A stretch of DNA of 64,000 nt. It comes from Limisphaerales bacterium. Its GTDB lineage: Bacteria > Verrucomicrobiota > Verrucomicrobiia > Limisphaerales > UBA11358. Where the stretch lies: the NCBI GenBank assembly GCA_003161635.1, contig PMOA01000100.1, positions 9,771-73,770 of the forward strand, read 5' to 3'. How positions within the stretch are numbered: the first letter of the stretch is position 1; the number at the start of each line of letters is the position of its first letter. The translations under genes were made by a program, and so were the position numbers. The notes under the pieces are model-generated. The model was not told the origin of the DNA and searched no databases. It saw only the letters and a program-made list of their open reading frames with translations. This document shows positions 1 through 20,413 of the stretch, one piece after another.

Positions 1-1705
1 GCCGCGGGTTTTGGCCGATGACTTCGGCCCGGCTGTAACCCGTGACCCGTTCAAAGACCGGATTGACGTAAAGAATGCGTCCCTTGGTGTCGGTGATGAC
101 GACGCTTTCCGGGGTTTGCTCAATGGCGGTCATCAGGCGGTTGAGCTCTGCTTCCGCCTGCTTGCGCGTGTCCTCATTGCCGATGGCGGAGGCGATAATT
201 CCGAGGATTCGACGGTCATCGTCGGTGGGCCGGTAATCCGTGCCGTAAACCACGCAGAGCGACCCTACGGCCTTGCCTTCGCATTTGACCGCGCACCCCA
301 GATAGGTTCGCAAGCCATACGCGCGCACATTGGGATCAGACTCGGCGTAAGATGTCTGGGGCAAATTGGTGATAACCACCGCGTCGTCCCGGTTGTCGCG
401 CAGGACATCGTAGCAAATGTGTCCCGCTGCAGAATCCTTTGACTTGAAGCCCGGCGGTGTCTGCCACTGGCCTATGGAGCAAAGCAAATCGCCTTGAAGA
501 CGATTATACAGAGCGCAAGTTGCTCCGAGCAGTTCACCGCAGAGGGCGGTCAGCCGGTTGATGTTCGAGTCATGGTCGTTGCCGAGCGCCAAAAGACAGC
601 CATTGATCCTCTTCAGCCGGTCGCTGGTCTTTTCCCGGGCGTTTTCCGCAAGCCTGCGTTCGGTGGTATCGGTGAATACCGCCGCAAACTGATCCCTGAT
701 GGGGCTGAAGATCCAGGCATCGTAAAACCTGCCCTCCACATCTGAAAAGTTCTGCCACGCGATCGGTTGGCCGGTTTGTGCCACCAAGCCAAACGCGTCA
801 ATCATGTCTTGTTCCACCGCTGGATTTACTTCCCTGCCCGTTTTGCCCAGCACGGCTGATGCTGGAACGCCCGTCAGCTTCTCAAAGGCGGGATTGACTT
901 CAAGATAACGGAAGTCAATGGGCCGTCTTTGTTCGTCGTAGATCATTTCATGCAGCGCAAAACCAACGGTCAAATTTTCGAAAAGCAGGCGGTATTTGCG
1001 TTCACTCTGGCCCAGCGCTTCCTCCGCCAGCTTGCGTTCGGTGATGTCCCGGCAGAGGGTCAGGATTTGGACCCCTTGCCCGCTCTTGGCCACCGTCGCG
1101 TTGATTTCAACCGGAGTGACCTGCCCCGCTTGCTTCACGTAATCAATTTCCAGATCTTTGATGAAGCCCTGCTGCAAGCACTTCTTGATCCCTGCGGCAT
1201 TCCGCTCACGGTCGTGCGCCGCCGTCCATTCGAGCACGCTTTTGCCGATGATTTCCGCCAGCGTGTTATGCCCGGTGAGCTGGACATACTCCTGGTTGGC
1301 CCCGCGGACTTTGCCTTCCGAATCCAGAATGACATAGCCCGTGTCCGTCGTTTCGATCAGCGCGCGGTATTTCTCCTCGCTTGCCAGTTGCGAAAAGCGC
1401 GCGTGCCGCAATCGCGAGACCAGCCGGTAAATCAGCACAAACAGCAGCGAGCCGGTGACCAGTACGAAGAGCAGCCCTTTGAGAGTGGACATTTCGTTCC
1501 AGGCTTTCGGATTCGCACCGATCGCCGCGACAAACTTGTCCGTGCAGAAAATCCAAAGCCCCGCGATCAGGACGTACCAAAAAACGATTTTGCCAGCGCT
1601 CCGGAATGGCGGTATCGGGGGGATCTCAGCAGGCTGTAATCCTTCGCGTGGGGTTCCGGCTTTTTCGCAACCCAAATTTGAGCGGCCAAGTTGTTCAACG
1701 TTCAT
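1..1705 (-). CDS. multi-sensor PAS/PAS/GAF/PAS signal-transduction protein, N-terminal ~568 codons; gene runs off the left edge
   Basis: Not in the ORF track because it has no stop inside the window. My own translation of the minus strand from ATG 1705-1703 stays open to position 2 (MNVEQLGRS...). It has two hydrophobic segments (IVFWYVLIAGLWIFC, LLFVLVTGSLLFVLIY), PAS-like blocks (EEKYRALIETTDTGYVILD; SERKYRLLFENLTVGFALHEM; LMTAIEQTPESVVITDTKGRILYVNPVFERVTGY) and a GAF-like block (AGHICYDVL...KAVGSLCVVY). The plus-strand ORFs 11-442, 494-745 and 929-1639 are antisense shadows. Confidence 0.75.
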   Translation of the reverse strand, partial: MNVEQLGRSNLGCEKAGTPREGLQPAEIPPIPPFRSAGKIVFWYVLIAGLWIFCTDKFVAAIGANPKAWNEMSTLKGLLFVLVTGSLLFVLIYRLVSRLRHARFSQLASEEKYRALIETTDTGYVILDSEGKVRGANQEYVQLTGHNTLAEIIGKSVLEWTAAHDRERNAAGIKKCLQQGFIKDLEIDYVKQAGQVTPVEINATVAKSGQGVQILTLCRDITERKLAEEALGQSERKYRLLFENLTVGFALHEMIYDEQRRPIDFRYLEVNPAFEKLTGVPASAVLGKTGREVNPAVEQDMIDAFGLVAQTGQPIAWQNFSDVEGRFYDAWIFSPIRDQFAAVFTDTTERRLAENAREKTSDRLKRINGCLLALGNDHDSNINRLTALCGELLGATCALYNRLQGDLLCSIGQWQTPPGFKSKDSAAGHICYDVLRDNRDDAVVITNLPQTSYAESDPNVRAYGLRTYLGCAVKCEGKAVGSLCVVYGTDYRPTDDDRRILGIIASAIGNEDTRKQAEAELNRLMTAIEQTPESVVITDTKGRILYVNPVFERVTGYSRAEVIGQNPR

Positions 1706-1981
1706 AAAAACCCTGACGCACGCTTGACGCCAGAAGCTATTTCACAGGTTCCTCAAAACGAGATTTGCGAGGAACCTCGAAGGGAACATCATCTCATTGT
1801 CGGTCAGACCACAGGTATGTGTAACAGATGACAAAGCCGCCGGCAAGGTTTCAATGGCTGGATGAATTCTTATTCACGACCAGTCTTTGGAAGTCATGAC
1901 CGTCGAAGCGGAGAAGTAAGGAGAACTCGCACAAGTGATTGCGCGAGCGAGGCGATCGAAGTTCGTAACGCCCTGAAAGAA

Positions 1982-2007
1982 CGAAGCCGGGTGTATCGCC
2001 CGGCTCG
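1982..2007 (-). terminator. candidate intrinsic terminator downstream of the deoxyhypusine-synthase-like gene
   Basis: GC stem GCCGGG (1986-1991) pairs with CCCGGC (1999-2004) around a 7-nt loop. On the minus strand it is followed by TCTTTC, so the U-tract is weak. Confidence 0.4.
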
Positions 2008-2032
2008 TTGAATACTCGTCGCTGGAAAACGC

Positions 2033-3241
2033 TCAACCCAGCGCCGGCTCGGTGCCGTCAATCATTTTCACCTGGTTGTGCTCGAAGTATTCCTTCGTCA
2101 ACGCCTTCACGGCTTTGGCGCGCTGATCGTAGAGTCGCTTCAGCTTGCGCGGCTTGTGCCGGGCCAGCGCGTAGCTCGTGATGATCGGCATGGCGATGGT
2201 CGTGTCGGTGTAGCAGACGACGGCATCGGGCAAACGATCCGGGTCCACCTTGCCCCAGCTCACGGCTTCGCTCGGCGTGGCGCCGGAGAGGCCGCCGGTG
2301 TCGGGCCGCGCATCGGTGATTTGAAGGAAGTAATCCTGGCCGTATTCCTTGATGCGCAGCACTTCCTGGATTTGCGGCTCGGTCTGGAGCATGAAGTTTT
2401 TTGGACTGCCGCCGCCCCAGAGCACCACGGCGCTCTTGCCGCCGGCCCGCTTGGCGGCGAGGACGATGGCGGTGGTTTCATTCACGTCAATCGAGGGGTT
2501 CATGCGCAGTTTGTTGCCGCGCAATTCCACACCCGCCACGTTCATGCCAATGGTCGAGTCGCCGGGCGAACTAGTGTAGCATGGCACCCCGGCACGATAG
2601 GCGGCGGCGAGCACGGACACGTCCTTGAGGCCGGCCTTGCGTTCCCATTCGGCGCAGTATTTGCCGATGAGATGGTGCAGTTCGGCGGTGCCCATTTCCT
2701 TCTGAAACTCGGGCTGGATGAGAATGTCGCGGAGGATTTCGTCGGTGGCCATCAGGCAATCGCTGTAGCCGAGCAACACGTCATAGACGCGGACGATGTC
2801 GTTCTCGCGCAACTCGGTGTCGTCAAACTTGAAGTTGCCGACGCGCACCGGATAATTCAGCGCGAAGTGCATGTCGTGATAGAGATTGGCGCCGGTGGCC
2901 ACAATCCAGTCCACGAAACCGGCCTTGATGAGCGGCACGATGGACGAACAACCCATGCCCGCTGGCGTGAGCGCGCCGGAGAGGCTCATGCCGATGGTGA
3001 CATCCGCTCCGAGCATTTTCTCCGTGAAGAGCTGGCAGCTTTCCTTGAGCCGCGCGCCGTTGTAGGCGAGAAAGGTTTCGTCCACCAGGTCGGCGAGCTT
3101 TTCCTTGCCGGTGATGTTCTTGGGTAGGATGCGCTTGCCGGACATGAATTTGTCCCGGTTCGGGCATTTCTTTTTCTTCAGCCATTCCGGCGTGTCCAAA
3201 AGGTCTTCGCGATAACGTGAGGTTCGTTGTGTCTTGGCCAT
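2033..3241 (-). CDS. deoxyhypusine synthase-like / homospermidine synthase-like protein
   Basis: ORF 2033-3295. Family-typical blocks: [74 protein letters not shown] prefer the internal ATG at 3241 ([10 protein letters not shown]) because the longer start overlaps the divergent gene. The start is uncertain; 3145 is also possible. Confidence 0.8.
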
Positions 3242-3276
3242 AAATTTATGGAAAATTTGTACCGCATACGATACAA

Positions 3277-4677
3277 ATGTTCTCAAGTTTGCCAACTCTT
3301 AAAAATTTGGTGCTGGCAGGCAGTGGAACTTCCGGTTTCGTTCTGGCCTGTGTTGTCCTTTGCTCTTGCGGTTCAAGCCGCAGTGCCGCCGCCCATTTGC
3401 AGGCGGCTTTGCATACAAGACCAAGCGGTCATCAACTCTTTGACTCAAACCAAATCACGAATGCAGTTCAAGAGTTTGGCGAAAATCGCGAAGCCGCTTT
3501 CACCGTTCTCAAAGCAGCCAGCAACGAGACCAATACGCTTGTTAACGCCGGCCGGATAATTGATACCAATAAATTTGTTCGTGCCGGTGCAATTTATGGA
3601 ATTGGCCAATTGGGCAAATCGGTTCCTGAAGTCACGCCGTTTCTCTGGGATGTCATTTACTCTCCATCAAGAAACAGGCTTGATCGTTGGATGGCTTTTC
3701 GCTCTCTTCAAAACATTGGATTCCAAGCACAGGACATTCCGGTATTGGCTAAATTGCTTTCTGCCCCGGCAAGCAATCAGAACATTTTAACCAAGGTTGT
3801 GCCTGAAACCATTTCCGGGCTGATTGAGACCAATCCGCCAGCGGCAAGGCCATATTTTTCTTCGGTGGAAAATTTGCTGGATGATTCGAATCCGGACACC
3901 CAATTCCGCGCGGCGCTGGCGTTAGTCAAAAGTGAAGGCGCAAACAATCCCAAAATTTTCTCCGCGCTGCACGCGCTTTTCGAGCGTCCGAATGACCGTG
4001 ACAGTGGATACTTCAAAAGCATAGCAGCGCAAATTCTCGGTGAAGCCGGGCCGCCAGCCAAACCGCTTGTGCCGGACTTGTTGGAATTCGCCAAATTGCC
4101 GGACGAAGATTACATTTATCAACTCGTCGCCAGGATTGAACCGGAGTTGGGTTCGCAAATTCCCGAGGTGGCGCAAGCGCTCAAAGACCAAAAGCGCGCG
4201 CAAATGTGGGCGGAAAAATGGAAATCGGGTTCATACACGCTGGACGATCTACGCTCCGCCTTGAAGGAGGAGGATCAGGCGCTGATTGCGGCAAAACATC
4301 TGGCCGAAATGGGTGCCACCGCAAAAGCTGCCGTGCCGGACATGATTCAAGCTTTGTGGGGAAAGGATGAAGATACACGAGACGCAATCCTGGCCGGCCT
4401 TCACAAAGTGGATCCGCAAGTGGTGGTTGCCAAAATTTACGTGACCAATATTCCGGTTGCCTTTGGCGGTGCGTATTCGATTTTGGAGAAAATGCCTGCT
4501 TCACAACAAAACAAAGCGCTGACGGATTCCTGCTTTCGGATGATGTTCATGGATGGGTGGGTTTTGCCCGACGAACTGGCCGCCCTGACAAATAACCTGG
4601 CAGTTCAAGCCCCGGACGCATACCGCGCGTTTGTCGAAGGGCTGAAGCCAGCAACCTGCTCGAAACCGACGAATTAA
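3277..4677 (+). CDS. HEAT/ARM-like repeat protein with lipoprotein-type signal peptide
   Basis: ORF 3277-4677. N-terminus [14 protein letters not shown] is lipobox-like. The rest has a repetitive alpha-helical pattern with recurring A..LG..G..A...VP.L blocks. There is no catalytic motif. Confidence 0.45.
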
Positions 4678-4811: not shown

Positions 4812-5897
4812 CTAGCGCACGGTCACCAAATCCGGCTGGACCAGTGAGAATCCGCCCTGGACATTATCGTGAAATTGGGCTGCAACGATGATATTGTTGG
4901 TGCAGGTGGTGTTATTCACCCGGAAGGCCGCGCTGCCGCAGTTGCTGGTGATCAGGTTGGTGAAGGAGTTGTGCGCGCATTCGGTCTGGGGAACAGGCTG
5001 CCAGCCGCCTTCAGTCTGTTTCTCGGTGTGCGCCATGAAAACACCGTAATGGCGGCTGTTGCGGATGGAAATATTGTGAAATTGATTGTCGCAGCTCTCG
5101 CGCATGAAGATGCCCAGGTCGTTTACGGTCAGAACGGCATTGCTGATGACGTTGTGATTGAAAGCCAGGTCGAGCGAAATGCCGGCACCGGGATTGTCGT
5201 GGAGGTAAAGTTCCGTGAACAGGCAATCCGCCGTTTGATAACAGGCCAAACCGTCGAACTCGTTGTCAAACGCGGTCAAATCCCGCACCGTCAGCCGCCG
5301 CACGTCCCGCGTGGTGACCAAGCCGCCGGAACGGCAGCGGGCACAGGTCACATGTTCCACTGTCGAATCGCTCACATTTTGAATGGTAATTCCATTGTTG
5401 CGGACCTCCGAGCTTTCGCCCTGAAGCTGCCAGAGTTCGCGTTGCTGGTGGTAACGGTTTCCGTCAATAAAAAGGTCGCTGACGCGCAGGTCTTTGACAG
5501 TTGAATGTGGATTGTTGACTGGTTCACCCAGGATGATAACCGGGCAATTGGCGCCATCCGCCAGGCGCAGGACTGTCGCATCCGCGAAACCGCGCAAGGT
5601 CTGATGATCGCGCTGCAACACGATGGGCTGGCGGACTTCAAAAGTTCCGGGTGGCAGCACCACTTCCCCGCCACTTTCGGGCAGGATGTCCAGCGCTTGT
5701 TGGATTTCGGCGCTGGTCACGCCGGCGGGCAACATTGCGGCCTCCGGTGCCACGCCGGCGGGCAACATTGCGGCCTCCGGTGCCTCGCCAAGTATTTGGG
5801 GAGCAATCCCGTGACTCACCGGAAAGGTCAACAACCCCACGCATAAGGCATGCTTTACGACCGCCAAACTTTTGATTTGATGCAAGCTCATTTTCAT
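4812..5897 (-). CDS. secreted right-handed parallel beta-helix repeat protein (pectin-lyase fold)
   Basis: ORF 4812-5897. It has a signal peptide (SLAVVKHALCVGLLTFPVSHG) and repeated ~22-aa PbH1-like units (NGITIQNVSDSTVEHVT, RDLTAFDNEFDGLACY, LYLHDNPGAGISL, ISIRNSRHYGVFM). Confidence 0.6.
   Translation of the reverse strand: MKMSLHQIKSLAVVKHALCVGLLTFPVSHGIAPQILGEAPEAAMLPAGVAPEAAMLPAGVTSAEIQQALDILPESGGEVVLPPGTFEVRQPIVLQRDHQTLRGFADATVLRLADGANCPVIILGEPVNNPHSTVKDLRVSDLFIDGNRYHQQRELWQLQGESSEVRNNGITIQNVSDSTVEHVTCARCRSGGLVTTRDVRRLTVRDLTAFDNEFDGLACYQTADCLFTELYLHDNPGAGISLDLAFNHNVISNAVLTVNDLGIFMRESCDNQFHNISIRNSRHYGVFMAHTEKQTEGGWQPVPQTECAHNSFTNLITSNCGSAAFRVNNTTCTNNIIVAAQFHDNVQGGFSLVQPDLVTVR
5718..5783. 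repeat. perfect 33-bp tandem duplication inside the beta-helix gene
   Basis: CACGCCGGCGGGCAACATTGCGGCCTCCGGTGC occurs at 5718-5750 and again at 5751-5783. This gives APEAAMLPAGV twice in the mature N-terminal linker. Confidence 0.95.
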
Positions 5898-6134: not shown

Positions 6135-7256
6135 ATGGCAAACCTGCAATCGGTGAATACATCAACACCCGCCGAACTCGGCTATGCCATGCCGGCGGAG
6201 TGGGAGCCGCATGAAGCCACCTGGCTGGGCTGGCCGCACAACGAAACCGACTGGCCGGACAAGATTGACACCATCCGCTGGGTTTATGGCGAAATGGTGC
6301 GGAAAATTTCGATGGGCGAACTCGTGCGGATTCTCGTCCGGCACCGGGCCGAACAGAAACTTGCCACCAGCTATTTGAAACGTGCAGGCTGCGATTTGAA
6401 GCGGGTTGAATTTGTCGTACATCCGACCAATCGCGGCTGGACGCGCGACAGCGGACCGATTTTTGTGAAACAAGGTAGGGACGCGCTGCCGCGCGTCCAG
6501 GCTGACCAGCAGGTCAGCCCTACCACGGAGACCGCCATCGTCCATTTCCATTTCAATGCGTGGGCAAAATACAACGATTGGCAAAAGGACACCAAGGTCC
6601 CGGAAACCGCCGCGGAACTTTTGAAGAAATCGCTTTTCAACGCGCAAGTCAACGGAAGGAATTTCATCATCGAAGGCGGGGGCATTGAGGTGAACGGTCA
6701 CGGCACGCTGCTGACCACCGAGGAATGCTACCTTCATCCCAAAATCCAAGTGCGAAATCCCGGCATGACGAAGGCGCAATACGACGAGACGTTCAGGAAA
6801 TATCTCGGCGTCAAATACGTCCTGTGGCTGCTCAACGGCCCGGTCGGCGATGACACGCACGGGCACATTGACGACATCTGCCGCTTCGTGAATCCGAAAA
6901 CGCTCGTGCTCATCCGGGAGACGAACCAGAAAGACATTAATTACCGTCCACTGGCTGGGAATTGGGAGCGCGTGCAGGATTTCCGGCTCGAAGACGGTTC
7001 AAAACCCGAAGTGGTGCCGCTGCCGATGCCCGCGCCAATTTTCTACGACGGCTATCGCCTGCCCGCGAGTTACGCGAATTTTTACATCTGCAACGCCTGC
7101 GTCATCGTCCCGACCTTCAACGATCCGAACGACCGGGTGGCGCTGGGCACGCTCGGCGAGTTGTTCAAAGACCGTCCGGTGGTCGGCATCCACGCCGTTG
7201 ACCTCGTCCTAGGATTTGGTTCGCTGCATTGCCTGACCCAGCAGCAACCGATGTGA
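6135..7256 (+). CDS. aguA: agmatine deiminase (peptidyl-arginine deiminase family)
   Basis: ORF 6033-7256, whose first codon is TTG. Motifs: MPAEWEPHEATWLGWPH, WTRDSGPIF, HFNAWAKY, IEGGGIEVNG.GTLLTTEEC, DDTHGHIDD, YANFYICN, GSLHC near the C-terminus. ATG 6135 (MANLQS) gives a family-typical ~373 aa. Confidence 0.88.
   Translation: MANLQSVNTSTPAELGYAMPAEWEPHEATWLGWPHNETDWPDKIDTIRWVYGEMVRKISMGELVRILVRHRAEQKLATSYLKRAGCDLKRVEFVVHPTNRGWTRDSGPIFVKQGRDALPRVQADQQVSPTTETAIVHFHFNAWAKYNDWQKDTKVPETAAELLKKSLFNAQVNGRNFIIEGGGIEVNGHGTLLTTEECYLHPKIQVRNPGMTKAQYDETFRKYLGVKYVLWLLNGPVGDDTHGHIDDICRFVNPKTLVLIRETNQKDINYRPLAGNWERVQDFRLEDGSKPEVVPLPMPAPIFYDGYRLPASYANFYICNACVIVPTFNDPNDRVALGTLGELFKDRPVVGIHAVDLVLGFGSLHCLTQQQPM
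6474..6524 (+). repeat. family-A double-hairpin palindromic element, in-frame inside aguA
   Basis: Sequence GGTAGGG-ACGCG-CTGCCG-CGCGTCC-A-GGCTGAC-CAGCAG-GTCAGCC-CTACC. It is 51 nt (17 codons, GRDALPRVQADQQVSPT). It has the same ends and architecture as the copies at 10210, 10660 and 15679. Confidence 0.85.
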
Positions 7257-7972: not shown

Positions 7973-8139
7973 AAGCGCCGTAGGCGCGGCATATTTGTAG
8001 CTTTTCGTTTCATAGAAATCACAAGCTCCGTAGGAGCGACATCGTCCGGTGGACGGGCGGAATATGCCGCTCCTGACGGAGCTTGGAAATTTTTTGGGAT
8101 GCGATTTCTACAAATATGTCGCCCCTGAACGGGGCTTGG
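7973..8139. repeat. cluster of four REP-like hairpin units in alternating orientation (BIME-like)
   Basis: The units lie at 7973-8000 (+), 8023-8042 (+), 8062-8086 (-) and 8108-8139 (-). The consensus is AAGC-NCCGT(N)AGGN-GCG-R-CATATTTGTAG. The stems are GCGCC/GGCGC, GCTCC/GGAGC, GCTCC/GGAGC and GCCCC/GGGGC. CATATTTGTAG (7990-8000) and CTACAAATATG (8108-8118) are perfect inverted copies. Confidence 0.8.
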
Positions 8140-9099: not shown

Positions 9100-12096
9100 T
9101 TATACCTTTTGTTTTACCGCTTCAACGCAACGGCCACAAATCGTCGGATGCTCTGGATTTTTTCCAATGTCTGTTTCCCAATGCCAGCACCGCTCGCACT
9201 TCTGGCCGTCGGCTTTGGAAACTGAATGTGAAATTGGTCCGCCAACTTTCATTTTCAATTCCGAAACATTCAAAAGCTCACGCAATAAATCTCGATCAGA
9301 AAATTGGTTTTGAACCTGCGGAATGACGATTTCGACTTTTGCTTCCAGAGCTTTGCCAATGGTTTTGGCTTGGCGTGCCTTCTCCAATTCCGGCAAAAGT
9401 GTTTCGCGCCACAGTTTGAGCCAGTCCCATGTCCCGATTTCATCAGGGTCTAATGTGAAGGTGCTTTGTTTGAATTCACTTTCGTGAACCGAACTTGTTT
9501 TCTTCCCCGGCACAAACTCCCATGCTTCATCCGTCGTGAAGGCCAGAATCGGCGCGAGCATCTGGCACAGGCTGGTCACCAGCCGGTGCAGCGCGGTCTG
9601 GGTCGAGCGGCGGCGATGTGAATTGGCCGGGTCGGTGTAAAGCCGGTCTTTGATGACGTCGTGGTAGATCGAGGACAGCTCCACGGCCACAAACTGGCTG
9701 ACTTTTTGATAAACGACGTGGAATTCGTAGTCGTCGTAGGCCTTGATGACTTCCTGCTCCAGTTTCGAGAATTCGCCAAGAATCCAACGATCGAGGCCAG
9801 TCAGGTCGTCGTCTCTGACTTTATGCTTCGCCGGATCGAAGTCGTAAAGGTTCGAAAGCTGGTAGCGCAGGGCGTTGCGGATGCCGCGGTAGGTCTCCGC
9901 CACCTTGGTGATGCGTTCCTCGCTTACGATGATGTCGTTGCGGTAATCCTGCGACGCGACCCACAGGCGGACGATGTCCGCGCCGTGTTTCTTCACGTAA
10001 GCCTCGGCGGTCTGCGGTTTTTCGTAACCGCCCTGACTTTGTTTGCTCTTGGAAATTTTCTCGCGGTCGGCGTCCACCATGAAGCCGTGGGTGAGCACGG
10101 TCTTGAACGGCGCTGCGCCGTTGCCGGCCAGCGAAAGCAACAGCGATGATTGAAACCAGCCGCGATGCTGGTCAGAGCCTTCGAGATAGACGTCCGCTTG
10201 CCATTTTTCGGTAGGGCCGCGCTGCTGCGCGGCCTCGGATGTCTGGGACGAGCAGCAGCTCGTCCCTACCAAATGTTGCAATTCGCTTCGCCGCATCAAC
10301 ACCGTGCGCGAGGACGAACCGGAATCAATCCACACGTCGAGCGTGTCGTTGGACTTGTTAACGGCTTCCGCGCCTTTCCAATCCTTCGGCTTCACGAGCG
10401 ACCAAAGTTCGGCGGCGGATTTTTCGAACCACACGTTCGAACCGTGTTTTTCAATCAGGTCGGCGGTATTGCGGACGATTTGGGCATCGAGGATCGGCTC
10501 GCCTTTCGCGTCGTAAAACGCCGGAATCGGCACGCCCCAAGTGCGTTGGCGCGAGATGCACCAGTCGGGACGGGTTTGCACCGCGCTTTTGATGCGGTTG
10601 ACGCCCCAGTCCGGCACCCATTTGACGCGGTCAATTTCGGCGAGAGCGGCGGCGCGGAAGGTAGGGCCGCGCTGCTGCGCGGCCTCGGATGTTTGGGACG
10701 AGCGGCAACTCGTCCCTACCACGTGATCAATGCGAATAAACCACTGGTCCATCGCCCGGAAAATGACGGGCGTCTTGCTGCGCCAGCAATGCGGATAGCT
10801 GTGGTGATAATTCTCCTGGTGCAGCAGCGCCTTGCAAACGCGCAGTTCGTGCAGGACCGCTTCGTTGGCGTCACTTTTGCCGTGTTTCTCGAGAATGGAT
10901 TTGCCAACCATCCCGGCCGGCATCTGTTGCTCGATGGGCAAATCGCTCGTGTGCGCGAAACGACCGTCGTCGTCCACTGGCGAGTAAATCGGCAAACCGT
11001 TTTGCGAGCCGAGGCCGTAGTCTTCGAGACCGTGTCCCGGTGCGATGTGAACGAACCCGGTGCCGGTGTCGCTGGTGACGAACCCGGCAGAATAGAGCTT
11101 GCCGGTGCGATTGCAAAACGGGTGCTGAAACTGCAATGCGGCAAGCTTTTCGGTTGGGAACGGTTGTTCGCTGTAATTGCTCCAGCCGCACTTCTCCGCA
11201 ATGGCAGGCAGCAAACCGCGGAACAAAATGTATTTTTCGCCGCCGACTTCGACCTGGACGTATTGGAATTTGCTGTTGTAAGCAACGGCGAGGTTGGCGG
11301 GCAGCGTCCACGGTGTCGTCGTCCAAATCAGCACAAACGTGTCCGGCTGGCCGACGATGGGGAACTTCACGAAAATGCTCTGGCTGACATGGTCCTGGTA
11401 TTCGACCTCAGCTTCGGCGAGCGCGGTGCGGCAAGGGATGCTCCAATAGACCGGTTTTTTGCCGCGATAAACAAAGCCTTTCCCGACGATGTCCGCGAAC
11501 AGGCGCAGTTCGTCGGCTTCGTATTCCTTGTTCAGCGTGAGATACGGATTATCCCAGTCGCCGAGGACGCCAAGTCGTTTGAATTGCGTGCGCTGGATAT
11601 CAATGTATTTGCGGGCGTAGGCTTCGCAGGCTTTGCGGATGGTGGCGGCGCTTTCCGAAGGTGCTTCCGGCATCTTGCCGGAAGATCCAATTTCATTTGG
11701 ATTGCCAGTACTAGTTGAGGAAGATGGATCTGCCGGCGGGACGCCGGCAGCACGTTGCTTGCGCATCTCCTGAGAAACCTTGAATTCGATGGGCAATCCA
11801 TGGCAATCCCAGCCCGGCACATACGGCGCGCTGAAACCCCGGAGGGTTTTATATTTGATGATGATGTCCTTGAGAATCTTGTTCAGCGCCGTGCCGATGT
11901 GGACGTCGCCGTTGGCAAAGGGCGGGCCGTCGTGCAGGATAAATTTTTCCGCGTTTGCGCGCGCCGCCTGAATTTTTGTGTATAGCCCGGTTTCCTGCCA
12001 TTTTTTGAGCCGTTCCGGTTCCCGCGCGACGAGGTCGGCTTTCATGGGAAAGCCGGTTCGCGGCAGGTTGAGCGTGTTTTTGTAGTCCGTCGCCAT
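9100..12096 (-). CDS. ileS: isoleucine--tRNA ligase (type 1, C-terminal Zn finger) carrying in-frame repeat insertions
   Basis: ORF 9100-12096, 998 aa. Motifs: PPFANGDVHIGTALNK (HIGH), WTTTPWTLPAN, YPHCWR, PDWCISRQRTWGVPIP, YLEGSDQHRGWFQSSL, KISKSK (KMSKS), CERCWHW...CGRC. Confidence 0.97.
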   Translation of the reverse strand: MATDYKNTLNLPRTGFPMKADLVAREPERLKKWQETGLYTKIQAARANAEKFILHDGPPFANGDVHIGTALNKILKDIIIKYKTLRGFSAPYVPGWDCHGLPIEFKVSQEMRKQRAAGVPPADPSSSTSTGNPNEIGSSGKMPEAPSESAATIRKACEAYARKYIDIQRTQFKRLGVLGDWDNPYLTLNKEYEADELRLFADIVGKGFVYRGKKPVYWSIPCRTALAEAEVEYQDHVSQSIFVKFPIVGQPDTFVLIWTTTPWTLPANLAVAYNSKFQYVQVEVGGEKYILFRGLLPAIAEKCGWSNYSEQPFPTEKLAALQFQHPFCNRTGKLYSAGFVTSDTGTGFVHIAPGHGLEDYGLGSQNGLPIYSPVDDDGRFAHTSDLPIEQQMPAGMVGKSILEKHGKSDANEAVLHELRVCKALLHQENYHHSYPHCWRSKTPVIFRAMDQWFIRIDHVVGTSCRSSQTSEAAQQRGPTFRAAALAEIDRVKWVPDWGVNRIKSAVQTRPDWCISRQRTWGVPIPAFYDAKGEPILDAQIVRNTADLIEKHGSNVWFEKSAAELWSLVKPKDWKGAEAVNKSNDTLDVWIDSGSSSRTVLMRRSELQHLVGTSCCSSQTSEAAQQRGPTEKWQADVYLEGSDQHRGWFQSSLLLSLAGNGAAPFKTVLTHGFMVDADREKISKSKQSQGGYEKPQTAEAYVKKHGADIVRLWVASQDYRNDIIVSEERITKVAETYRGIRNALRYQLSNLYDFDPAKHKVRDDDLTGLDRWILGEFSKLEQEVIKAYDDYEFHVVYQKVSQFVAVELSSIYHDVIKDRLYTDPANSHRRRSTQTALHRLVTSLCQMLAPILAFTTDEAWEFVPGKKTSSVHESEFKQSTFTLDPDEIGTWDWLKLWRETLLPELEKARQAKTIGKALEAKVEIVIPQVQNQFSDRDLLRELLNVSELKMKVGGPISHSVSKADGQKCERCWHWETDIGKNPEHPTICGRCVEAVKQKV
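10210..10270 (+). repeat. family-A double-hairpin palindromic element, in-frame inside ileS (copy 1)
   Basis: Sequence GGTAGGG-CCGCG-CTGCTG-CGCGGCC-TCGGATGTCTG-GGACGAG-CAGCAG-CTCGTCC-CTACC. On the minus strand it reads VGTSCCSSQTSEAAQQRGPT (20 codons). Confidence 0.9.
10660..10720 (+). repeat. family-A double-hairpin palindromic element, in-frame inside ileS (copy 2)
   Basis: Same ends and both hairpins as copy 1; the loop of hairpin 2 is CGGCAA. On the minus strand it reads VGTSCRSSQTSEAAQQRGPT. Confidence 0.9.
11664..11750. repeat. hairpin-rich 87-nt segment inside ileS (candidate third in-frame insertion)
   Basis: Two perfect 9-bp hairpins: CTTCCGGCA-tct-TGCCGGAAG (11664-11684) and CTGCCGGCG-gga-CGCCGGCAG (11730-11750). 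They flank ATCCAA-tttcat-TTGGAT (11685-11702). The segment encodes low-complexity AAGVPPADPSSSTSTGNPNEIGSSGKMPEAP. Confidence 0.55.
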
Positions 12097-14701: not shown

Positions 14702-15679
14702 ATGGCCGTCATTGAAGTCAGCGGTCTCACCAAGACCTTTCGCACCTACAAAAAGCAGCCGGGGTTTGGCGGCGCAATCAAAGGGCTGTTTCATCGCCAA
14801 TACGAACAAACCATCGCCGTCAACGATGTGAGTTTCAAGATTGAACCCGGCGAACTCGTCGGTTTTCTCGGCCCGAACGGCGCGGGCAAGACCACCACGC
14901 TCAAGATGCTCGCCGGTCTGCTTTATCCCACCGGCGGCTCGGCACGCGTGCTCGGTTACGTCCCGTGGGAACGCGCCGACGGCTACCGCCGCCAGTTCGC
15001 GCTCGTGCTCGGCCAGAAAAACCAGCTTTGGTGGGATTTGCCCGCGCGTGAATCGCTCGAACTGAACGCTAAAATTTACGGCATTCCCGCCGACCGCTTC
15101 GAGCGCACCGTCACCGAAATGAGCGAAATGCTCAACGTCCGCGACAAGCTCAACATCAGTGTTCGCGAGCTTTCCCTCGGCGAGCGCATGAAGATGGAAT
15201 TGATCGCCTCGTTGCTGCACCAGCCCAAGGTGTTGTTCCTCGACGAACCGACCATTGGCCTCGACGTGGTTTCCCAAAAGATCGTCCGTGAATTCATCCT
15301 CCGCCACAACACCGGGCAAAAGACGACGATTTTGCTCACGAGCCATTACATGGCCGACATCCAGGCGCTTTGTGACCGTGTCATCATCATTGACCGCGGG
15401 AAAATTTTCTTCGACGGCAAGTTGAGCGAAATCGTGGATCGCTTCGCTGATTTCAAACTCGTCACCATTCAATGCGAAAAAGTGAACGATTATCCGGCGG
15501 AAAATCTGGCGTGCTACGGTGAAGTCGTTGAAAAAAACGCCGGCTCCATCAAGTTTAAGGTCAAACGCGACCGCGTCATCGCCGTCTGCAAATCGCTGCT
15601 CGATGATTTGCCGGTAAGTGACATTGACATTCAGGAAGTGCCCATCGAAGACGTGATCCGCCAGATTTTTGCGCGATAG
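14702..15679 (+). CDS. ABC transporter ATP-binding protein with ~90-aa C-terminal extension; no permease gene adjacent
   Basis: Motifs: GFLGPNGAGKTTTLKML (Walker A), LSLGERMKMELIASLL (signature), VLFLDEPTIGLD (Walker B), LLTSHYM (H-loop). Confidence 0.88.
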   Translation: MAVIEVSGLTKTFRTYKKQPGFGGAIKGLFHRQYEQTIAVNDVSFKIEPGELVGFLGPNGAGKTTTLKMLAGLLYPTGGSARVLGYVPWERADGYRRQFALVLGQKNQLWWDLPARESLELNAKIYGIPADRFERTVTEMSEMLNVRDKLNISVRELSLGERMKMELIASLLHQPKVLFLDEPTIGLDVVSQKIVREFILRHNTGQKTTILLTSHYMADIQALCDRVIIIDRGKIFFDGKLSEIVDRFADFKLVTIQCEKVNDYPAENLACYGEVVEKNAGSIKFKVKRDRVIAVCKSLLDDLPVSDIDIQEVPIEDVIRQIFAR

Positions 15680-15730
15680 GTAGGGCCGCGCTGCCGCGCG
15701 GCCTCGGACGACCAGCAGGTCGTCCCTATC
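15679..15730 (+). repeat. family-A double-hairpin element, intergenic copy abutting the ABC gene stop codon
   Basis: Sequence GGTAGGG-CCGCG-CTGCCG-CGCGGCC-TC-GGACGAC-CAGCAG-GTCGTCC-CTATC. Its first G is the last base of the TAG stop (15677-15679). The linker is shorter than in the ileS copies. Confidence 0.85.
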
Positions 15731-18810: not shown

Positions 18811-18924
18811 TTTTGGACTGCGGCGGCAAGCGGAGCGCGACGCCGCTTTCGCAGAAGGTAAAATTCCACAATCGCCGGTTTTCAAAGCGCTGTCGCCGCT
18901 GCGCTCTGCCAGCGCAGTCCAAAA
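18811..18924. repeat. 114-bp MITE/REP-doublet-like element with perfect 12-bp terminal inverted repeats
   Basis: TTTTGGACTGCG (18811-18822) and CGCAGTCCAAAA (18913-18924) are the terminal inverted repeats. The arms stay similar for ~40 bp (GCGGCGGCAAGCGGAGCGCGACGCCGCTTTCGC versus the reverse complement GCGCTGGCAGAGCGCAGCGGCGACAGCGCTTTGAA). There is an internal hairpin CTGCGCT-ctgcc-AGCGCAG. Confidence 0.8.
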
Positions 18925-19540: not shown

Positions 19541-20413
19541 TCACGCAACACGTTGTGCCAACGCCACGAACTGTTCCAAACTCACCGCTTCCGCGCGGAT
19601 TTGTGGAGAAAGCTGCAGTTTTTCAAATGCCCGCTCCAATTTTTCCGCCGGCCAATCTTTGCGCAGCAGTTTCAACATCATTTTTCGCCGTTGCGAGAAC
19701 GCCCGTTTGACGATTTTCGCGAACATCACGCGCTGGTGGTCCGACAAAGGCGGTTGGGCGCGACGAATCAAAACCACGCAGGCCGAATCCACGTCCGGCT
19801 CCGGGAAAAAGCAGCTTGCCGGAATCTTGAACCAATCGCGCAGCTCGTAGTCGAGTTGAAGCAGCAGCGTCAGCACACCGTAATCTTCGTCACCGGCTTT
19901 GGCCATGAGCCGGCGGGCAACTTCGAGTTGCAATGTCGCGACCATCCGTTCCGGTCGTTGGGGCGATTGCGCCAATTCCACAAAAATGGTTGAAGCGACG
20001 GAGTAGGGCAAATTCGCCACGAGCTTCCAGTCGCCCCAATCGTGCGACTCGCGGCGGAGAAATTCCAGCGCGTCGGCGTGGATTAGATGTAGCGCAGGCG
20101 TCCCGCCTGCCTTGAGCAAAGTGGTCGAATTGTGCAGGCGGGACGCCTGCGCTACGTTAAACCGCTCGCGCAAAAATTCCACCAGTCGCAAATCTTTTTC
20201 GATGGCCAGAACTTCCCCCGCTTTCTCCAGCAACCATTCCGTCAGCGGACCCAACCCCGGCCCAATTTCCAGAATTTTGTCCGCTTTTTCCAGTTCCGCC
20301 GCCTCGACGATGCGGCGGAGTTGGTTGGCGTCGTGCAAAAAATTTTGGCCGAGGGATTTCGTCAACTGAATCCCGCGCGTGGCCAGCAGTTCCCGCATTT
20401 CCGAAAGCTTCAC
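19541..20413 (-). CDS. rsmA: 16S rRNA (adenine1518/1519-N6)-dimethyltransferase RsmA/KsgA, carrying an in-frame palindrome
   Basis: Motifs: GQNFLHD, ILEIGPGLGPLTE (SAM motif I), AIEKD, ANLPYSVAS, FFPEPDVDSA, RRK....L. Confidence 0.9.
   Translation of the reverse strand: MKLSEMRELLATRGIQLTKSLGQNFLHDANQLRRIVEAAELEKADKILEIGPGLGPLTEWLLEKAGEVLAIEKDLRLVEFLRERFNVAQASRLHNSTTLLKAGGTPALHLIHADALEFLRRESHDWGDWKLVANLPYSVASTIFVELAQSPQRPERMVATLQLEVARRLMAKAGDEDYGVLTLLLQLDYELRDWFKIPASCFFPEPDVDSACVVLIRRAQPPLSDHQRVMFAKIVKRAFSQRRKMMLKLLRKDWPAEKLERAFEKLQLSPQIRAEAVSLEQFVALAQRVA
20089..20155. repeat. 67-bp perfect-arm palindrome inside rsmA
   Basis: GTAGCGCAGGCGTCCCGCCTGC (20089-20110) and its exact reverse complement GCAGGCGGGACGCCTGCGCTAC (20134-20155) are separated by a 23-nt loop. 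The segment is translated in-frame as VAQASRLHNSTTLLKAGGTPALH. Confidence 0.9.

Follow-up and report, generated by a model that had tools for sequence, protein, structure and literature searches.

The 64,000-nucleotide stretch analysed here (the window) covers positions 9,771 to 73,770 of contig PMOA01000100.1 in genome assembly GCA_003161635.1 of a Limisphaerales bacterium (Verrucomicrobiota). On its minus strand, the open reading frame (ORF) at 9100-12096 is an intact ileS gene encoding an isoleucyl-tRNA synthetase (IleRS) of 998 aa, and two palindromic 61-bp segments lie within its coding sequence. These segments are probably copies of a GTAG-tagged dimer of repetitive extragenic palindromic (REP) sequences. 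The editing domain and zinc-finger cysteines at the C-terminus are present in the host protein, as are the HIGT (HIGH-type) and KISKS (KMSKS-type) motifs. It matches the Pfam families tRNA-synt_1, Anticodon_1 and zf-FPG_IleRS, and its comparison with the IleRS of PDB entry 8c9e yielded an E-value of 5e-223. Identical or approximately 100% identical IleRS sequences are recorded in independent assemblies (P0001, found on 14 contigs, P0002 and P0003).

The two segments are located at 10660-10720 (site A, minus strand) and 10210-10270 (site B, minus strand). They are 95% identical (3 of 61 positions differ) and share orientation and codon phase on the coding strand of ileS; the first-pass annotation of this DNA had reported them as such, and both their coordinates and their sequence were confirmed. 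Site A encodes aa 459-479 (VGTSCRSSQTSEAAQQRGPT) and is composed of a unit at 10660-10684 with the stem GGCCGCGC, a spacer at 10685-10694 and an inverted unit at 10695-10720, the stem of which (GGACGAG) includes a G-T wobble. Site B encodes aa 609-629 (VGTSCCSSQTSEAAQQRGPT) and is composed of a unit at 10210-10234, a spacer at 10235-10245 and an inverted unit at 10246-10270. At the RNA level, each copy is predicted to fold into a pair of hairpins with the terminal repeat as their closing stem, at energies of -36 to -39 kcal/mol and z-scores of -5.2 and -5.8. The pattern GGTAGGG-N35-60-CCCTACC was found three times in the window, as compared with no occurrence in 100 dinucleotide-preserving shuffles. 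An Rfam search of the window yielded no family at the gathering score and, on the elements, only chance-level matches to SorY (E = 0.36).

Compared with solved IleRS sequences, both 61-bp segments appear as clean gaps. In an alignment of 38 ileS orthologues (76-100% identity), site A is empty (IDH-QKFR) in P0031, P0072 and P0107, and site B is empty in P0063, P0072 and P0083. Because orthologues with empty sites exist, the inserts were acquired, and the earlier suggestion of insertions rather than ancestral sequence is borne out, as is its expectation of gaps at both sites in some orthologues. The insert size given by the same annotation, exactly 20 sense codons, is approximately right and not exact: 61 bp amount to 20 whole codons plus one base, and the net gain relative to the empty-site orthologue L001 is 19 residues per site. 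To judge from the sequence, a position of the inserts in surface loops is plausible; an AlphaFold2 model of IleRS calculated from the 38-sequence alignment (mean predicted local distance difference test score 46.9, predicted template modeling score 0.31) was too poor for placing them.

The repeating unit is a REP sequence of 25 nt, consisting of a GGTAG tag, an 8-bp GC stem (GGNNGNNC), a 4-nt TGCY loop and the complementary stem. Two such units in inverted orientation, with their tags outward, form a dimer; a spacer of 1 nt results in the 51-bp form, which makes up most of the family, and a spacer of 11 nt in the 61-bp form found in ileS. The element had initially been described by its 7-bp terminal inverted repeats, 2 bp of which are within the hairpin stems; a tail-to-tail dimer of 25-nt GTAG-tagged REP hairpins is the better description. 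One REP unit was used as the query in a scan of one genome per prokaryotic species, which returned at least 117 matching stretches, nearly all from metagenome-assembled genomes (MAGs) of Verrucomicrobiota (labeled Limisphaerales, Pedosphaera or Verrucomicrobiia). The related loci (approximately 8 kb each, picked for repeat content alone) and the window together comprise 0.94 Mb. In this set, a stem pairing at 7 or 8 of its 8 positions follows 228 of the 308 GGTAGGG sites (74%). The hairpin-forming GGTAG units number 227, with 142 organized in 71 tag-outside dimers (spacers of 0-28 nt, mode 1 nt) and 85 occurring as lone or other units. The presence of the GGTAG tag in every copy is built into the searches, which required GGTAGGG, whereas its location next to a hairpin is an independent result. 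Just outside the ends of 80 dimers, a pyrimidine precedes the element in 66 cases and a purine follows it in 71.

Covariation was determined for 77 distinct units, which had been pre-selected for pairing at 6 or more of the 8 stem positions. The paired percentage (97.4% of the stem cells, as compared with 75% in shuffled data and 35-52% with slid partner columns) is inflated by this pre-selection, so that changes on both sides of a pair are the informative measure, with the shuffle and slide as controls. Such two-sided changes are present at 6 of the 8 stem pairs; covariation of this strength indicates that the hairpin is maintained and not its sequence. In locus L020, three 51-bp GGTAGGG dimers at 6867-7151, 78-156 bp apart, with more units between them and all in one frame, form a cluster resembling a bacterial interspersed mosaic element; it is found close to where a giant gene (ORF of 1930 aa) begins, either within this gene or immediately upstream.

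A census of coding and non-coding copies was based on 80 strict GGTAGGG...CCCTACC dimers, where a copy was considered intragenic if it was spanned by a long ORF with sense-type codon-position GC content. Dimers with a length divisible by three (3n) were intragenic in 38 of 50 cases, all within sense ORFs, which departs from the predominantly extragenic location that is a trait of the GTAG-REP superfamily; the 51-bp dimers among them contributed 31 of 37. Of the non-3n dimers, 9 of 30 were intragenic (Fisher p = 7e-5), and of the lone 25-nt units 22 of 85; the same rule assigned 66% of random 51-nt windows to genes. Dimers of 3n length are thus found inside genes about as often as random positions, whereas non-3n dimers and lone units are depleted there. 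Regarding codon phase, GGT AGG G... is the reading in 30 of the 31 copies of 51 bp that lie within genes, yielding peptides such as GRDALPRVQADQQVSPT. The phase GG-TAG contains a stop, and the remaining open phase, used by the ileS copies, encodes cysteines. Intragenic survival accordingly depends on length modulo 3 and on codon phase. The host ORFs represent 39 distinct genes, and clear Pfam identities were obtained for 27 of the 30 tested; they include the NAD-dependent DNA ligase LigA, MutS (two inserts), RecQ, CysRS, PurL and HypF, as well as EPSP synthase, COX15, a P-type ATPase and an ABC-F protein (two inserts). Recurrence outside ileS, which had been named as a check in the first-pass annotation, was found, the same DNA element being present in about 39 unrelated genes of the loci analysed.

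Published REP-associated tyrosine transposases (RAYTs) taken from the supplement to the study by Di Nocera, De Gregorio & Rocco (2013, BMC Genomics 14:522; PMC3733652) were used as tblastn queries and matched 5 of the approximately 117 8-kb repeat loci. In L040, a RAYT-like ORF at 5077-5550 contains the HLH and conserved tyrosine motifs and has arrays of the GGTAGGG REP on both sides, a layout that is the classical REPtron arrangement. ORFs in L052, L068 and L077 pass the Pfam model Y1_Tnp (PF01797). Locus L077 also holds a threonyl-tRNA synthetase (ThrRS) ORF of 821 aa at 1353-3815 (tRNA_SAD, tRNA-synt_2b, HGTP_anticodon), which contains an entire IS200-like Y1 transposase domain (RAYT/TIRYT-like) at approximately 2202-2853, in frame and without stops. 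The ends of this insert are a perfect 24-bp inverted repeat (GGGGAGCGCGCGCGTCCCGCGTGC / GCACGCGGGACGCGCGCGCTCCCC) and it is located just before the YYLKAMNCP motif; a whole autonomous element in frame in an essential gene looks unusual.

The ileS loops are occupied differently in other orthologues: nine or more unrelated sequences fill site A, and site B is similarly diverse. At the DNA level, the alternative fillers examined are strong palindromes (-20 to -81 kcal/mol), several with GTAG- or GTGG-type tags, except for the site-B filler of L122, a CTCAACC-type short tandem repeat without any fold (0.0 kcal/mol). A third ileS loop (approximately aa 113-148) behaves alike. In the window, it holds an in-frame palindromic insert of 89 nt from a different repeat family (11663-11751, minus strand; QRAAGVPPAD...SSGKMPEAPSES, with the ends AAGVPPAD...SSGKMPEA; -40.6 kcal/mol, z = -5.5), which is also found in L002 and is absent (KAGDTSADAA) from L003, L122 and L001; in the close relative L003 the loop is empty. 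The distribution is mosaic: the element at site A of the window is common to L003 and not L002, while that at site B is common to L002 and L123 and not L003. The agmatine deiminase gene shows the same behavior at one loop, for which the basal state is KRKS/QTAIV and at least 10 different fillers were found among 120 orthologues; the GGTAGGG dimer is present there at slightly different positions in two lineages. A search for target-site duplications around the ileS sites (A, B and N) and the insertion site in agmatine deiminase, in which the filled/empty pair L125 and L126 was included, found none, and inspection by eye of the empty ileS and deiminase loops revealed no common target motif.

Where an element is common to several species, 61-63 of 63 nt are identical, as compared with 89-92% identity in the flanking 300 nt and 76-81% at third codon positions; the two differences in the element of L123 are both synonymous. 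A recombination tract was considered as the cause of this identity and rejected, as mismatches resume 9-35 nt from the element ends and no clear tract is visible. Non-palindromic fillers of the hot spots in ileS and agmatine deiminase (A1; P0126-P0232) encode STLNPQPSTNN (CTCAACC repeats), NPQSAIRNPQS and HPTSNIQHPTS; since tandem-repeat fillers are present, the loops collect several kinds of repetitive DNA. At site N of the L124 ileS, a single hairpin encodes SGTGVSPVS, which matches GTGVSPV/GTGVPPV of the Opitutus terrae family GTAG-19 (PMC3733652) and suggests that this family is common to several verrucomicrobial orders.

Taken together, we consider it likely (probability roughly 0.8) that the 61-bp segments of ileS are copies of a GTAG-tagged, REPIN-like REP dimer (REPIN, a REP doublet forming a hairpin) that was mobilized by a RAYT and is tolerated in frame. 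By analogy with RAYT and IS200-type systems, the units would be non-autonomous repeats, dependent for their spread on the trans action of a REP-associated tyrosine transposase of the Y1 (HUH) type, which would recognize the tag and the hairpin on single-stranded DNA and leave no target duplication. TnpA-REP of E. coli and the IS200/IS605 enzymes act on single-stranded DNA in this way, without target duplication. Copies would land anywhere and be filtered by selection afterwards, as the census shows for the family and as we infer for the ileS copies; the surviving intragenic copies would be those that keep the frame, avoid the GG-TAG-GG stop phase and lie in tolerant loops. The ileS inserts would then be transcribed and translated as hydrophilic loops of about 20 residues without abolishing the function of the enzyme. 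Two loops of IleRS carry such inserts, or three if the different family is included, and since these loops hold unrelated palindromic elements in close relatives, they may be regarded as junkyards or as landing sites used repeatedly.

Several points weigh against this interpretation. The RAYT-like ORF of L040 was recognized by tblastn only (E approximately 1e-10) and scores below the Pfam thresholds, and tblastn detected no RAYT gene in the 64-kb window. The two units of a dimer carry different stems, so that two adjacent hairpins result, with 4-5 bp of pairing between the tags, and no single long REPIN hairpin; other families at the reused sites (L121, L124) and at 20089-20155 of the window do form long hairpins. 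Avoidance of stops alone does not explain the strong phase-0 bias of the 51-bp copies. The length of 61 bp, which is not divisible by 3, prevents an exact reconstruction of the insertion into ileS, and no closely related empty ileS site was found for the 61-bp elements. Finally, the mobility of the element and the passage of the insert into mRNA and protein are proposed by analogy.

A conventional MITE (miniature inverted-repeat transposable element), the 7-bp terminal inverted repeats (TIRs) of which would be recognized by a DDE transposase, with the hairpins being incidental, appears improbable. It would account for the nearly invariant GGTAGGG/CCCTACC ends and for the pyrimidine/purine bias just outside of them, but not for the occurrence of the 25-nt unit alone and with spacers of 0-28 nt, nor for the stem covariation, which indicates that the hairpins are maintained. 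Moreover, no target-site duplication was seen, the repeats flank a Y1-type gene in L040, and 7 bp is far below the typical length of MITE TIRs. Co-option, in which the mRNA hairpins (e.g., through effects on mRNA stability or pauses in translation) or the encoded loops serve IleRS and are retained for that reason, is similarly unlikely. The same element resides in approximately 39 unrelated proteins, and the ileS loops have unrelated contents in close relatives and none in others, although nearly all orthologues have some filler there. The higher identity between species of the elements than of their flanks and third codon positions, together with the synonymous nature of both differences in L123, would fit co-option, but a constraint on hairpin and tag as the transposase substrate explains this conservation equally well.

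Fast-evolving lineage-specific loops with coincidental palindromy, a decaying ileS pseudogene and an assembly artefact are largely refuted and have very little probability left. Hypervariability of the loops among orthologues and the origin of the data from metagenome assemblies could be cited in their favor; coincidence, however, is contradicted by the absence of the pattern from shuffled sequences, by fold z-scores of -5 to -6 and by the recurrence of the same DNA in unrelated genes and between genes. As to a pseudogene or an artefact, the ORF is intact, the catalytic motifs are present, the sequence was recovered identically from independent assemblies, and the flanks show conservation of the coding type. 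The RAYT-mobilized GTAG-REP dimer thus remains the preferred interpretation of the ileS segments.

Two causes of the loop reuse are possible: either new elements prefer existing palindromes while old ones decay to linker sequence, or few positions per protein tolerate inserts and independent insertions accumulate there. A more far-reaching proposal, which we offer tentatively and regard as rather doubtful, is that protein-coding loops, and not intergenic DNA, are a main REP habitat in this verrucomicrobial clade, and that particular loops are reusable landing pads where unrelated palindromic families successively insert or replace each other at the same codon positions of essential genes (three loops in IleRS, one in agmatine deiminase). 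New elements would, on this view, target existing palindromes, beyond mere survival in permissive sites, and the 51-bp dimer (25 + 1 + 25) in its GGT AGG G... phase would represent a form adapted to ORFs. If loop reuse does reflect targeting of existing palindromes, it would offer new insight into the choice of insertion sites by RAYT-type enzymes.

The main points of interest are the quantitative frame filter, a selection signature in which length modulo 3 and codon phase decide the persistence of copies in genes, and the finding that unrelated elements repeatedly come to occupy the same loops, the latter being the most interesting new point. In-frame REP hairpin dimers in housekeeping genes are hereby extended from one cultured verrucomicrobium to broad uncultured Limisphaerales-like lineages. 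For annotation, it matters that proteins of metagenome-derived Verrucomicrobiota become longer and more variable in length through these repeats (at approximately 80% identity, IleRS orthologues range from 931 to 1115 aa), and the hypervariable "junkyard" loops can confuse orthology assignment, alignment and structure prediction.

The window holds four GTAG-REP dimers of the ileS-element family; the two outside ileS, which had also been listed in the first-pass annotation, are both real. The 51-bp dimer at 6474-6524 (plus strand; 25 + 1 + 25 nt) is in frame and adds 17 codons (GRDALPRVQADQQVSPT) to the agmatine deiminase ORF at 6135-7256 (Pfam PAD_porph, E = 2.5e-108). Within the same ORF, the REP arm at 6484-6500 lies adjacent to the host sequence that codes for the conserved WTRDSG motif (6437-6453, CTGGACGCGCGACAGCG), and the two are 94% complementary; this could be due to chance, or the motif sequence could be what attracted the insertion. 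The 52-bp dimer at 15679-15730, for which no strand is assigned, is extragenic and has a degenerate right tag (CCCTATC); its first base is the last base of the TAG stop of an ABC-ATPase ORF (14702-15679). A GTAG-tagged REPIN of another family at 20089-20155 (minus strand) measures 67 nt with perfect arms of 22 bp and is in frame in the rsmA/ksgA ORF at 19541-20413 (Pfam RrnaAD, E = 1e-49), where it encodes VAQASRLHNSTTLLKAGGTPAL (VAQASRL...AGGTPAL); its fold reaches -51.3 kcal/mol (z = -9.7).

Further repeats were observed in the window. A minus-strand frame of 269 aa, open from stop to stop, includes a palindrome of 114 nt (18811-18924, -58.8 kcal/mol). This palindrome may belong in frame to the N-terminal part of a gene that is putatively ClpP by synteny with L002 and L003, or may closely precede this gene. 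The region 7982-8126 (145 nt, with GTAG-ended inverted arms of 19 nt; -77.5 kcal/mol) is apparently non-coding and located between small ORFs and ileS. At 5718-5783, a perfect 33-bp tandem duplication is present (two copies of CACGCCGGCGGGCAACATTGCGGCCTCCGGTGC).

Bacterial MITEs have TIRs of 15-30 bp, generate target-site duplications and are mobilized by DDE-type enzymes. The elements described here resemble in-frame MITEs (Correia/NEMIS, Nezha, ERIC) in being small non-autonomous palindromic repeats that extend or interrupt ORFs, but neither long TIRs nor target-site duplications nor DDE mobilization were seen. REPIN/RAYT systems, reportedly described by Bertels & Rainey in 2011, Nunvar in 2010 and Ton-Hoang in 2012, share with them the inverted REP doublets, the single-copy Y1 transposase flanked by REPs, the absence of target duplication and the long persistence at orthologous positions. 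Classical REPINs, however, form one long hairpin and are almost entirely extragenic, whereas here the stems are unlike, two hairpins form and the majority of the 3n copies lie within genes. Rickettsia palindromic elements (RPEs), said to have been reported by Ogata et al. in 2000, are likewise palindromic selfish repeats in frame in functional, often essential genes, where they are apparently tolerated. The first-pass annotation had likened the ileS segments to them; this holds for selfish DNA tolerated in frame, but by its architecture the element is a GTAG-REP dimer and probably not a member of an RPE family. RPE-1 is approximately 100-150 bp long, the host phylum is another one and no RAYT link is known for RPEs. 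RPE-4 and RPE-6 are REPs of the CGTC type (PMC3733652), as opposed to the GTAG tag here, a distinction of unit architecture.

The closest counterparts are the GTAG REPs of the verrucomicrobium Opitutus terrae. Di Nocera, De Gregorio & Rocco (PMC3733652) introduced REP superfamilies distinguished by GTAG and CGTC tags and connected those of the GTAG type with RAYTs; their supplement lists approximately 70 intragenic GTAG REPs in O. terrae, many of them dimers encoding 15-30 residues, with in-frame copies in the genes for DNA ligase, UvrA, PurL, HypF and others, some twice per gene, and also lists REPs inside tRNA synthetase genes of other species. The lack of a description for this lineage, as assumed in the first-pass annotation, therefore does not extend to the phylum. 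A literature search found no later description, beyond PMC3733652, of in-frame REPs in Verrucomicrobia, of the ileS-element family or of loop reuse. Families GTAG-17, GTAG-18 and GTAG-19 of O. terrae have the same short GC hairpin with a terminal GTAG tag (PMC3733652). As here, the O. terrae repeats occur as single units and as inverted dimers with spacers of 1-2 nt or longer and flank the associated RAYT genes; many are in frame in housekeeping genes, sometimes two per gene, adding 15-30 residues, and some copies supply or abut TAG stops. The present family differs in its unit (GGTAG-GGNCGNGC-TGCY), its peptides (GRDALPRV..., VGTSCR...), its hosts (Limisphaerales/Pedosphaera-like MAGs) and the lack of detectable gene avoidance by 3n dimers; reuse of loops by unrelated elements is apparently not mentioned in PMC3733652. 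In summary, the elements show the hallmarks of the GTAG-REP superfamily, namely a unit within the range of 20-40 nt that forms a GC-rich stem-loop of 6-9 bp, the GTAG tag, dispersed single and dimeric copies and a RAYT flanked by repeats (the last in the relative L040 and not in the window); they belong to a different sequence family in a different host order, and the in-frame phenomenon as such is already known for the phylum.

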